Of a stretch of 64,000 nt of DNA, positions 55,946 through 59,062 are shown piece after piece. The notes beneath the pieces were generated by a model. It was not told the origin of the DNA, ran no database searches, and saw only the letters and a program-made list of their open reading frames with translations. The stretch comes from an uncultured Gammaproteobacteria bacterium (GTDB lineage Bacteria > Pseudomonadota > Gammaproteobacteria > CAWCPV01). The DNA is taken from the NCBI GenBank assembly GCA_963797555.1, contig CAWCPV010000014.1:96001-160000 (forward strand), read 5' to 3'. Numbering within the stretch: the stretch's first letter is position 1; each line of letters begins with the position of its first letter. A program made the position numbers and the translations under genes.

Positions 55946-56205
55946 CACGGCCCTTTGGTTCGGTGCCACAGACAGACCAACACGCTTCCGTGACTACGAC
56001 GAGCCACGGAAGGAGCGACAAAGGGCCTCAAGCGAGCCACTGCATGCGGGCCTTCTACAGCGCTGTTAGAGTACGCTCGCGACTTGTCGCGAGGACTAAA
56101 CTCTCTCGCGCGCGGGTCCGCGAGACCGCCACACCACCGACACCCCAGAGTTATAAGAAAACGACGCCCCACCCCCTGGGGCCGATCAGAGATGCCACGG
56201 TATGA

Positions 56206-56439
56206 CTACGGTGTTGTTCGGCGGCGCCGGCGAGATCTTTCTGCGACGAGCACCAAAACCCCGCCCAGAAACGCAAGTGCTTGCGTGCCCGCCCCCACAT
56301 CTATCTCCGGAGCCTCTATTTTCTTGACATGCCCAGGCGCACAGGCGGGAGCGCACAAGCTGATCTCGCTCCTAGCAAATGCAGGCGACGCCGAACTGAT
56401 CGCAAGAACTGCTGCGAGAAGCGTCAGTTGGATTTTCAT
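56206..56439 (-). CDS. VPEID-CTERM sorting-domain protein
   Basis: AAGGAGG RBS; signal peptide, APEID, TM helix, RSRRRRR tail; next to exosortase E. Confidence 0.88.
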   Translation of the reverse strand: MKIQLTLLAAVLAISSASPAFARSEISLCAPACAPGHVKKIEAPEIDVGAGTQALAFLGGVLVLVAERSRRRRRTTP

Positions 56440-56737
56440 CGTGCCCTCCTTATCCCTGAGTGCAAATAACGACGCGAATTGCCCGTCCCGGCATATCCGT
56501 ACGCGGATATCACGAACTAAGTTCGTATCTATAGACCTCTGCGGTGCCTTTGTCAAGGAGGACGTTCGCACGGCCTGTTCAAGGTTACCAGCGCGATCTT
56601 CAAAGTCTCCGTCTCGGTCACCCCCACGGCTTTTGTGCTGCGCTAGCGAGCCCGCTCCGTTCAGACGGGGTCGGTAATCTCCCACCTAACGATCATTGCG
56701 TCTGGCGCCACCCCAGAGGATGAAAGAAGCTGTGGGG

Positions 56738-56911
56738 TGGGAGACGGCGGGAAGAGGTCGCGCAAGTTTTTGGCGGCTCGACCCCGCAACCTAACGTGAC
56801 CCGCCGGACCGACTCGTACCCCGGATTGCTTCCCTACAGAGCGCACGTTAAACAGGCCGTCGGCGGCTTGCCGCCTTCAGGCTCACTCGGTCCGGCACCC
56901 GCCGTCTCCCA
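56738..56911 (+). ncRNA. Candidate bridge/seek RNA of the IS110 element
   Basis: Nested stems 56738-56751/56898-56911 (14 bp) and 56803-56812/56887-56896 (10 bp) enclose target-like and donor-like sequences. Strand assumed. Confidence 0.7.
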
Positions 56912-56941
56912 TCTCTTGAGTGTATTGCGACGGGAGACGAC

Positions 56942-58130
56942 ATGGAACTGGTAGCGATCTTCAAGCGTCTCATCGGTCTGGATGTGCATCAGGGGCAAGT
57001 GACCGCCTGTGCCATCCTTGAGGAGGCCGACGGCCAAGTCTACATCGAGCAACGCCAATTCGGTGCCTTCAAGAAAGACCGCCGGGCGTTCGCGGAGTGG
57101 TGCGCGGGATTTCGCCCGGAGGAGGTGGTCATGGAGAGCACCGGCATTTACTGGAAAAGTCCTTACGCAGCCCTAGAAGGCGCACGGCATCCAAGCCAAG
57201 GTGGTCAACGCCCGCCACGTCAAGCAGGTCCCGGGACGCAAGACCGACATCGGCGATGCCCAGTGGCTGGCCATGTTGGCTCGCGCCGCTCTGTTGCGCG
57301 CCTCCTTCGTGCCGAAGGCCAAACTGCGCGAGCTGCGCCTGATCGCCCGGCAGCGACAGAAGCTCGTGGGCTTGGCTGCCTCGGAGAAGAACCGGCTGCA
57401 CAAGGTGCTCACCGATGGTGGCATCCGCCTGGGGGTGGTGGTGAGCGATATCCACGGCCAGTCGGCCCGTGCCATGCTGAAAGCCCTCATCCAGGGGGCT
57501 GCTGCCCACGAGGTCCTCCCCCTGGCCAGCCGCCGGCTGAAGGCGAGCCGCGAGGAGCTGCTCGATGCCCTGCAGGGGGACCTGACCGAGTCTCATCGCT
57601 TCGTCCTCGATGAATTGATGCGCCACATCGAGGAACTCGAAGCCCGCATCGCCCGCTTCGATGCTCGCTTGCTCGAAGGCCTGAAGGAGGAGGCCAACAG
57701 CCTGCTGTTGTTGCAGACCCTACCAGGGGTCAATGTCATCGGTGCCGCCATGCTGCTGGTGGAAATCGGTAGCGACATGAGCGCCTTCGGTCATGCCGAG
57801 CGGCTCGCTTCCTGGGTGGGTATCTGCCCCGGCAACCACGAGTCGGCCGGCAAGCGCCAATCGGGGCGCACCCGCAAGGGCAACCCCTATGTGCGTCGTC
57901 TGCTGTGCGAGTTCGCCCATGCCGCAAGCCGTACCCGCTTGCGCCGCGGCCGCAAACGAGCCATCATCGCTCTGGCCCACAAGATGTTGCGTATCATCTT
58001 CTGCATGCTCTCGCGCGGCCAACACTACCGGGATTCGGCCACTGACTATGAAGCCCTATTTGTGAAACGCAACGCCCCACGCTGGATCAAGGCCCTCAGC
58101 CGCTACGGCTTCCTGCCAGCCGCCGCCTGA
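56942..58130 (+). CDS. IS110-family DEDD recombinase (frameshift near 57180)
   Basis: IGLDVH, VMESTGIYW, GRKTD..DAQW, TLPGV, NHESAGK (catalytic Ser), KGNPY; apparent short deletion before RRGRKRAIIALAHK. Confidence 0.93.
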
Positions 58131-58513
58131 ACCCTTCACCCCCTCCTCCTATGGCCCTCATCGGCCAGGCTCCGTCACGCCCAAAAACCGGCTTCTTTCA
58201 CGTTAAAGATTGCCTTGACTGGCCGGCCCTGGCCGATTCCGGTCACTGGACCCAGTAACTGCAGTGAAGCGATTCCCGACGCGCGCGCGTAAGGTATGCC
58301 GTAGAGGAGACGCAAGGGAGGCCAGGCGCGGGCCAGAGGGCGGTGCCGTGGCCGTGGAGGCATCACCCGCGGGAAGCGCGCAGTACGCGGATGGTGTCCT
58401 TTCCGCGGTTTACGGGGAAGCTGGTACTCGTCCTCGACGTGAGGCGGCGGCACCGTGTCGCCGGCCGGACCGGCCGGGGGGGAGGGAAGAATGGTGATCA
58501 GGGCATCGAAGTC

Positions 58514-59062
58514 TCAGCGGCCGTAGGTTGCGGTCAGCGTCGCCTTGGCCAGGGCGTTCGAATTCAGATAGAAACCCACCATCGCGCCGCTGGCATCCTC
58601 TTTAAGAGGCAGTTGATCCACCTTCAATGCATAGACGGTGAAGATATACCGGTGAGGCTTGTCGCCCGCCGGCGGACAGGGCCCCCCGTAACCGTGTTGA
58701 CCGTAGTCGGTCCTGCTTTGCACCGACCCTTTGGGGGCCAACCCGCTCTCCGGCCTGCCCGCATCGGCGGGGAGCATATTCGCGGAAGGCGGGATATTGA
58801 AGACCAGCCAGTGCCACCAGCCGCTGCCCGTCGGTGCGTCGGGATCATAGACCGTCACCGCGAAGCTCTTGGTCTCCTTAGGGGCGTTCTGCCAGTGCAG
58901 CTCCGGCGAGACGTTGCCACCCGTGCAGCCGAAACCGGAGAAAACCTGCTCCATCCCGACCGTGCCCTTGTTTTTGACCACGGGGCTGGTAATTTGAAAC
59001 TCGGCCGCAGATAACTGCCCCGCCATCAGGACGATTACCGCCGCCAACCAGAGTCGAGTCAT
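58514..59062 (-). CDS. YbhB/YbcL (PEBP/RKIP-like) periplasmic protein
   Basis: Signal peptide; GNVSPEL, YDPDAPTGSGWWHW, YGGPCPP, HRYIF. Confidence 0.95.
   Translation of the reverse strand: MTRLWLAAVIVLMAGQLSAAEFQITSPVVKNKGTVGMEQVFSGFGCTGGNVSPELHWQNAPKETKSFAVTVYDPDAPTGSGWWHWLVFNIPPSANMLPADAGRPESGLAPKGSVQSRTDYGQHGYGGPCPPAGDKPHRYIFTVYALKVDQLPLKEDASGAMVGFYLNSNALAKATLTATYGR

Follow-up and report, generated by a model that had tools for sequence, protein, structure and literature searches.

The locus described here raises the question of whether the RNA encoded upstream of the transposase gene in one insertion sequence (IS) of the IS110 family has a new guide architecture or is a bridge RNA of a known kind. 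The element lies in a 64,000-nucleotide (nt) stretch of an uncultured Gammaproteobacteria bacterium (GenBank assembly GCA_963797555.1, contig CAWCPV010000014.1, positions 96,001 to 160,000 of the forward strand), which is called the window below and from whose first letter all coordinates are counted. A preliminary description, made from the letters of the window, had placed the element at 56715-58209 around an AGA core, and had read in its RNA near-contiguous sense copies of the entire target and donor, arranged in tandem in shared loops. The analysis presented here leads to a different picture, which we consider highly probable: a multi-copy IS110 element at 56687-58206 with a TAA core, whose bridge RNA, at 56739-56910, has separate target and donor modules and short left guides.

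[quoted passage not shown]

On the forward strand, a whole IS110-family element extends from 56687 to 58206, 1520 bp in this copy and 1555 bp in sister copies, with a TAA at each junction (56687-89 and 58204-06) and non-coding ends of 255 nt on the left and 76 nt on the right. Its own genome holds 36 matches to it. A probe of the left end found ten loci there, the window included, all identical from 56687 on and divergent upstream, with CC at 56685-86 in eight of them; a probe of the right end found seven distinct places, with divergence after 58206; and five full copies aligned with their flanks have the same two ends. About 80 loci of relatives in named genomes start at a conserved TAACG and finish at a common motif followed by TAA. 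The contigs of four public metagenome runs (X1-X4) break at 56684/56685 and at 58207, as expected at the borders of a repeat. Taken together, the copies in the own genome, the relatives' loci and the contig breaks fix the ends.

Insertion takes place without target duplication at a short core common to donor and target, as is characteristic of IS110 elements, and this core is TAA in nearly all loci. In one relative (L075) a right end adjoins a left end with only one TAA between them, which fits a shared core of 3 nt and assigns the base before the TAA to the flank. Four loci (L023, L054, L056 and L070) have TAT or TAC at the right junction, the last A being replaced by T or C, so that the strict core is possibly TA followed by a strongly preferred A. 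Past the left TAA, the C and the G are nearly invariant and left-end positions 3-5 are variable; in the small hairpin P0 that follows, pair 13/24 is CG in 24 sequences and UA in five. Two Methylomarinum loci (L087 and L091) have a head-to-tail arrangement in which the second copy begins 2 or 8 nt past the first.

The strings quoted in the preliminary description are all present (AGA at 56715-17 and 58207-09, a 12-mer at 56818-29, a 13-mer at 56844-56, a 14-mer at 56786-99 and a stretch resembling a ribosome-binding site at 56932-39). The true ends, as given by the multiple copies, the relatives and the contigs, are different ones: the AGA at 56715-17 and the CACCCC preceding it lie inside the element, so the AGA 'direct repeat' is coincidental. 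The proposed target, CACCCC-AGA-TTGCC, joins the IS-internal segment 56709-17 to the right flank of one copy, the flanks of its sisters being unrelated; both this target and the circle junction reconstructed with it are invalid because the left end was wrong.

A conserved two-module RNA in the left end

For the analysis of the RNA, 80 loci were grouped by their RNA into 32 families, on which the covariation counts rest. Dropped before this step were loci in which the left end was not found or misplaced (L031, L054, L058 and L067), loci in which it was truncated or diverged (L014, L016 and L017), and loci with no anchor or left end (L006-L010, L012, L015, L018, L020, L048, L049 and L059). RNAalifold, run on the 32 family representatives, called 46 pairs, 19 of them with compensatory changes. 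In the curated structure of 51 pairs, 95.4% of cells are paired, compared with 40-44% when the partners are slid; 24 pairs have changed on both sides, compared with 12.4 in shuffles, and in 500 shuffles not one of the five measures used was ever reached. We count the structure as established on these grounds; the RNA would presumably also be transcribed and bound by the recombinase.

The outer stem encloses both a target module and a donor module (Table 1). In the target module, the 5' loop strand has a U-run (56767-71), the hairpin Pt pairs 56772-76 with 56782-85, and the 3' loop strand bears the left target guide; both-sided changes are found in pairs 80/123 and 81/122 of stem P2 and in pair 99/106 of Pt. 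The segment that bears the guide, 56786-94, is unpaired in this fold and also in the alternative one that is considered below. The donor module is built round a three-way loop with two hairpins, Px (56827-32/56839-43) and Py (56856-82). Its closing stem P3 has both-sided changes in pairs 133/224 (AU in 15 sequences, GC in nine) and 136/221 (UA in 19, CG in 11), and the same holds for pair 157/168 of Px (UA in 27, GC in four) and for five pairs of Py.

One stretch within the donor module, 56818-29, is near-invariant across 32 families with unrelated flanks, and with its last three bases it supplies the 5' side of Px. This conservation marks it as a structural or protein-binding motif rather than a programmable guide. 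A conserved 8-base motif of the left end, lying at 56710-17 just ahead of the left repeat arm, is found again, in sense, at 56818-25, and in L028 and L064 the match of this type extends to nine contiguous bases. As both copies are invariant, covariation is uninformative about their relation. A hairpin at 56709-39 was set aside, being not conserved in several families and not called by RNAalifold.

Two short left guides that covary with their sites

We scanned for guides by comparing each target or donor position with all variable RNA columns, in both sense and antisense orientation, with permuted families as the control. The columns that scored best for left-flank positions -1, -2 and -3 were 56791, 56790 and 56789, in sense and in register, with match rates of 0.97, 0.78 and 0.57 compared with 0.76, 0.38 and 0.25 in permuted families (z of 5.1, 5.7 and 4.7, respectively). 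The column scan gave nothing for flank position -4. In the window copy, the left flank ends in ACC, which is the reading of its guide; among 65 unique sites from all families, position -1 is C in 62, whatever the family. Because the flanks are not inherited with the element, the covariation of the left target guide is independent evidence.

The last bases of the right end behave in the same way towards the donor module. Right-end positions -1 and -2 have their best columns at 56848 and 56847, with match rates of 0.99 and 1.0 compared with 0.59 and 0.72 in permuted families, and position -3, which varies in two families only, matches 56846 in 1.0 of families compared with 0.87. All three positions match 56848-46 in nearly all of 29 families. 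The covariation is inflated here by shared descent, since the guide and the right end lie in the same element. The two left guides thus covary with their sites, and they occupy two separate structural modules, a two-module arrangement like that of the known model. In L075, the relative with abutted ends, the target guide resembles the element's own right end.

The results also bear on the architecture first proposed for this RNA, in which contiguous sense copies of target and donor stand in tandem in shared loops together with an antisense segment, 56786-99, that reads the right side of the target and the left side of the donor, and which we now regard as extremely improbable. The string matches behind it do exist, and 56792-99 is, as sequence, complementary to the right end at eight of eight positions. 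This architecture needs a left end at 56715, which the own-genome copies, the relatives and the contigs contradict, and the two guides that covary stand in separate modules and not in tandem in a shared loop. The 12-mer at 56818-29 had been taken for the copy of the target; its covariation with the insertion sites was checked, and it stays unchanged in the 32 families while their flanks differ. Its 11/12 match, which somewhere in about 225 nt has a probability of about 1e-3 (a rough random-sequence estimate, not one computed by a tool), is mostly explained by its composition: the left eight bases repeat 56710-17, and the right four match the flank of this copy only, the right flank TTGCC being confined to it. 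As for the supposed donor copy at 56844-56, the first eight bases (56844-51) do correspond to the right end and TAA, and the right half matches one IS-internal segment with another. The 14-mer at 56786-99 does contain a guide, at 56789-94, though not those that had been proposed: 56792-97 is invariant while the right end varies (position -2 differs in five families and position -1 in at least eight, 13 families being changed), and some of 56795-801 belongs to one strand of a stem that shows compensatory changes. That the 14-mer is complementary to the right end is a consequence of the near-palindromic donor junction. Other parts of the preliminary description stand, namely the identity of the element as an IS110 member, the long non-coding region upstream of the gene, the subterminal inverted repeat, and the presence in the upstream RNA of guide-like copies of target and donor, in the form of the two covarying left guides.

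Table 1. Coordinates of the features assigned to the element and its RNA
Feature	Position	Strand	Basis or description
Left-end terminal region (right half of the donor) with small hairpin P0 (56698-56709)	56690..56709	+	Conservation; pair changes
Subterminal inverted repeat, left arm	56721..56730	+	Perfect over 10 bp with 58191-58200; 34 nt from left end
Bridge-RNA structured core, 172 nt, closed by 13-bp outer stem (56739-51/56898-910)	56739..56910	+	RNAalifold; compensatory changes
Target module	56756..56801	+	Stem P2 (56756-62/56795-801), U-run, hairpin Pt, guide strand
Left target guide, sense copy of flank -3 to -1 and TAA core	56789..56794	+	Covariation with flank
Donor module	56803..56896	+	Stem P3 (56803-12/56887-96) round a multi-branch (three-way) loop
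Invariant single-stranded or stem-edge motif	56818..56829	+	All 12 positions invariant or at least 90% conserved in 32 families
Left donor guide, sense copy of last right-end bases and TAA, between Px and Py	56844..56851	+	Matching with right end
Transposase ribosome-binding region	56932..56939	+	Complementary to 3' arm of outer stem (56903-10)
Transposase gene, broken in this copy	56942..58130	+	Open reading frames split at 57184/57201; one extra A at 57177/8
Subterminal inverted repeat, right arm	58191..58200	+	6 nt from right end

Right-hand sites and points against the bridge-RNA reading

Several results weigh against a bridge RNA with two modules and left guides. Among all variable RNA columns, no convincing column was found for the right target at flank positions +1 to +7 (best z of 3.1), and none partners left-end positions 3-5 (best z of 3.5), where by our own count about nine different triplets occur; half of the canonical four guides are therefore missing or invariant. 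The covariation of the donor guide amounts to about three to five independent changes, counted by eye. The fold of the target module is ambiguous, in that a pairing of 56756-61 with 56773-78 fits about equally. An Rfam scan of 56300-58600 at relaxed threshold returned chance-level matches only and no fitting family, and a promoter and terminator scan of 56500-58400, in which joined ends were not scanned, gave no sigma-70-like promoter. An empty site was not found either: a search with the left flank (56150-56686) gave no match in 30 genomes of relatives, each placed only in the same class, and the contigs of runs X1-X4 include neither one that spans an empty site nor a joint of right end to left end.

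The failure to detect right-hand guides would fit a variant of the scheme, a minimal half-programmable bridge RNA that mixes IS110 and IS1111 traits. Only the two left guides would be programmable, with about 12 guided nt (three flank or right-end bases plus the 3-nt core, in each of two guides), and recognition of the right halves would fall to fixed RNA bases, namely the U-run, or to the protein through its contacts with the asymmetric subterminal repeats. The missing covariation at the right target and at the variable bases of the left end agrees with this, and so does a purine bias that holds regardless of family, at +1 in 48 and at +2 in 47 of the 65 unique sites. The 25 Methylomarinum sites have little in common beyond GC-TAA, and flank position +3 gives a weak in-register hint with column 56766 (0.67 compared with 0.42, z of 3.0). 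The U-run at 56767-71 is a candidate for a fixed right target guide, which would pair with the A's of the core and the two purines. Its register model fits the purine bias but not the Methylomarinum family, whose C-containing strand predicts a G at +2 that by our own count is found in five of 23 sites. Lack of covariation is, moreover, weak evidence at 24-32 families, and the right target guide of wild-type IS621 also has only 4 bp according to the portion of PMC11208160 used here, so that the difference is possibly one of degree. On balance we view a half-programmable RNA as a tentative idea, and a rather unlikely one.

Three further candidate segments were tried and rejected. A bulged antisense match of 56813-26 to the core and two bases, as a right donor guide, was too weak; a 6-nt antisense match of 56857-62 to a recurrent right flank was judged to be chance; and pairing of 56792-99 with the right end or with 56844-51 had no covariation. 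The recurrent flank is shared, nearly unchanged for about 10-15 nt past the TAA, by L004, L071, L033 and L079, which come from four genome records and belong to RNA families 0, 28, 8 and 30; their left flanks share the guided bases only. It may reflect a right target that is preferred or ancestral; alternatively, it may be a short repeat that is conserved. On the left, a pyrimidine bias at -6 (53 of 65 sites) and -5 (44 of 65) is independent of the RNA family.

Subterminal repeat and translation of the transposase

The subterminal inverted repeat has at least 7 bp in 27 of 29 families, and the Methylomarinum families carry matching changes in both arms; in this comparison L038 was left unscored on account of a substitution in the right arm. 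Downstream of the RNA core lies the ribosome-binding region of the transposase gene, with which, as had been suggested earlier, the outer stem can pair through its 3' arm. The eight pairs between 56903-10 and 56932-39 are formed in 76.8% of cells, compared with 45-64% when slid, and pair 238/271 between the arm and the ribosome-binding site (CG in 14 sequences, UA in six) has a both-sided change in six sequences. Since any ribosome-binding site of the GGAG type complements an arm containing CUCC, this pairing is suggestive only. It lends modest support to the idea that the arm may sequester the ribosome-binding site.

The same pairing could be taken further, with the upstream structure serving mainly as a 5' leader that controls the translation of the transposase by means of an anti-Shine-Dalgarno arm in competition with the outer stem, the choice of target left to the protein and the repeats, and the guides coincidental or vestigial. 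The complementarity just described, the conserved repeat whose arms change together, and the very short guides with no right-hand ones found in the column scan all speak for such a leader. Against it, of all variable RNA columns the in-register one is selected by each of three flank positions in a row, which would not be expected of a leader alone, and the family is annotated as RNA-guided (NF033542) and, in the portion of PMC11208160 consulted, shown to be so. A regulatory role and a guide role can also coexist. We therefore hold a leader without guide function to be very improbable, and return to the bridge RNA with two left guides.

Proposed mechanism

In the mechanism that we propose for this bridge RNA, the element would insert without target duplication at a TAA core, or possibly at TA with a strongly preferred A. 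Its 255-nt left end would encode the RNA, with the structured core at 56739-56910. The first module would present the left target guide, 56789-94, as a copy of the top strand over the core and the three flank bases that precede it, and the second, multi-branched module would present the left donor guide, 56844-51, as a copy of the last bases of the right end and the core. By analogy with IS621, a tetramer of the recombinase together with the RNA would pair a circular or abutted donor junction with the target and exchange strands at the core. Targets would have the form (three guided bases)-TAA-(purine, purine). In this scheme, transcription of the RNA, its binding by the protein, the chemistry and any right-hand guide are inferred.

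The transposase and the distribution of the lineage

The element is a member of the IS110 family by its Pfam domains, its NCBIfam score and its conserved catalytic residues. PF01548 (DEDD_Tnp_IS110, N-terminal) and PF02371 (Transposase_20, C-terminal) are found split over the two pieces of the open reading frame (ORF) in the window copy. An intact relative, L021, has 406 residues, is 80% identical, and scores 290.8 bits on NF033542, 'IS110 family RNA-guided transposase', where the cut-off is 140. It aligns weakly to the solved ISCro4 and IS621 transposases, and in the alignment it conserves D (in GLDV), E (in MEST), D..D (in KTD..DA) and S (in ES), and the same D/E/D/D/S motifs can be read in the ORFs of the window; the IS621 residue numbering of the catalytic positions was taken from a portion of PMC11208158.

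The closest full-length relatives among plasmid proteins, at about 38-41% identity, bear the name 'IS110 family' and come from Streptomyces, Burkholderia and Alicyclobacillus, and enterobacterial matches have 24-27% identity over 81-82% of the query. The hosts of the lineage itself include Aromatoleum, Accumulibacter, Acidithiobacillus, Nitrosomonas and Methylomarinum, and one Methylomarinum chromosome record alone contains at least 27 loci (L073, L074 and L076-L099). One Aromatoleum strain has eight loci, with an open frame of 406 residues. Among the papers listed by the searches made, none describing the lineage was found; figures or supplements may already show a relative such as ISAar29, which is named in the portion of PMC11208160 used here.

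State of the window copy and its sisters

The window copy is near-identical to L002-L005, and all five have one extra A at 57177/8, which shifts the frame of the transposase. By alignment, the extra A is absent and the frame open in two genomic copies (L006 and L007) and in one contig of run X4. After 57939, moreover, 33 nt (11 codons, in frame) are missing from the window copy and, by alignment length, from L006; these are present in the sisters L002-L004 and in contigs of runs X1, X3 and X4. With its gene both frameshifted and shortened by 11 codons, the window copy is non-autonomous.

Full-length open frames occur in two copies on another contig, neither of which retains the part of the left end that bears the guides: one is interrupted by an IS21-type element and the other is truncated at about 56864. 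In this assembly, RNA and protein could therefore come only from different copies. On one metagenome contig, of run X4, an intact left end is followed by a gene that lacks the extra A; autonomous copies therefore probably exist in the population, and the system could be studied without repair.

Some further copies in the own genome are worth recording. On another contig (L016 from 1677 onward, and L006 from 1 to 1500) one copy carries a 2.46-kb insert that divides it within hairpin Py, at about 56856-61; the insert encodes IstA/IstB-like proteins of the IS21 type and has six bases common to both edges. L013, which is the same place as L019, is a derivative of about 470 bp without a transposase gene that retains positions 1-252 (93% identical) and 1310-1520 (83%) of the element; from its sequence it is possibly a non-autonomous element that carries its own bridge RNA. 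L002 sits, judging from ORF translations only, within the apparent two halves of an ISL3-type transposase gene.

Implications

This locus illustrates that the guides of an IS110 element can be read only once its ends have been fixed from several copies: an error of about 30 bases in one end yielded an 'atypical' architecture that was convincing but false. What the catalogue of bridge RNAs gains is a well-populated lineage whose core is TAA, whose programmable guides are very short, and which has an outer stem that closes the RNA and a long subterminal repeat. It is useful for comparing guide length with target promiscuity, and opens no new question alone. If the half-programmable variant were true, this widespread proteobacterial lineage might represent a surviving intermediate stage in the relocation, proposed for the bridge RNA, from one element end to the other, and its low guide content might permit dozens of insertions per genome.

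Comparison with known systems

The structured core of the IS621 bridge RNA has 177 nt, similar in size to the 172 nt here, and its left guide has seven guided positions, compared with about three per left guide in this lineage. The two RNAs differ in other respects as well. The core is TAA (or TA and A) here and CT in IS621; within its loop, the left target guide occupies the 3' side here and the 5' side in IS621; the donor guide stands in a multi-branch (three-way) loop, whereas the canonical IS621 RNA has two simple internal loops; and both modules are enclosed within one 13-bp stem, unlike those of IS621. The subterminal repeat has 10 bp compared with 2-3 bp, and the transposase has 406 residues compared with 328 in the IS621 chain of the Protein Data Bank (PDB), with a weak alignment between them (E of 8.6e-08). 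The canonical layout of an IS621-type bridge RNA, in loops, guide sides and CT core, is thus not found here.

The likenesses to IS621 are nonetheless substantial, as far as the portions of PMC11208160 (Durrant et al. 2024) and PMC11208158 (Hiraizumi et al. 2024) used for them extend. Both elements encode a DEDD/Ser recombinase with PF01548 and PF02371 and carry the RNA upstream of its gene, in a long left end. In both, target and donor are served by separate modules, the left guides are sense copies including the core, as defined for IS621 in PMC11208160, and insertion leaves no target duplication.

Other traits recall the IS1111 group (ISEc11, ISPa11 and ISKpn4), as described in part of PMC11187229 (Siddiquee et al. 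2024). The repeat falls within that group's range of 7-17 bp; the segment that would pair with the bottom strand lies 3' in its module, provided that the U-run on the 5' strand is the top-strand partner; and the donor-binding bases stand in a multi-loop, as in many IS1111 members (PMC11208160). In contrast, the RNA lies here in a 255-nt left end, whereas IS1111 elements have a short left end and the RNA in a long right end, and the 406 residues exceed the 330-350 of IS1111 transposases and fit the IS110 subgroup of 395-455 residues (PMC11187229).

Two further elements from the same source, PMC11187229, stand closer in single features. In ISEc21, an upstream non-coding region supplies a guide RNA with short matches to both target strands, and a promoter formed at the junction is reported; the bottom-strand match is 5' of the top-strand match, unlike the order here, and the portion of the source concerned with it describes no comparable subterminal repeat. 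ISMtsp17 and other exceptions listed there among IS1111 relatives combine subterminal repeats with an upstream non-coding region, as this element does; ISMtsp17 clusters tightly with IS1111 transposases, whereas the protein here has the length of the long IS110 subgroup. The combination of repeat and upstream region, to which the preliminary description had drawn attention, is thus already on record in that part of the literature.

Many bridge-RNA models depart from the IS621 shape according to the portion of preprint 10.64898/2026.10.21.760802 used here, which predicts, for a set of 32,190 bridge RNAs, totals of 12 to 40 programmable nucleotides. The recorded exceptions and the many models of other shape place the present RNA within a known kind rather than in a new architecture, and its approximately 12 guided positions at the low end of the known range. 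We conclude that the element carries a bridge RNA of a known kind, with short guides and some IS1111-like traits.

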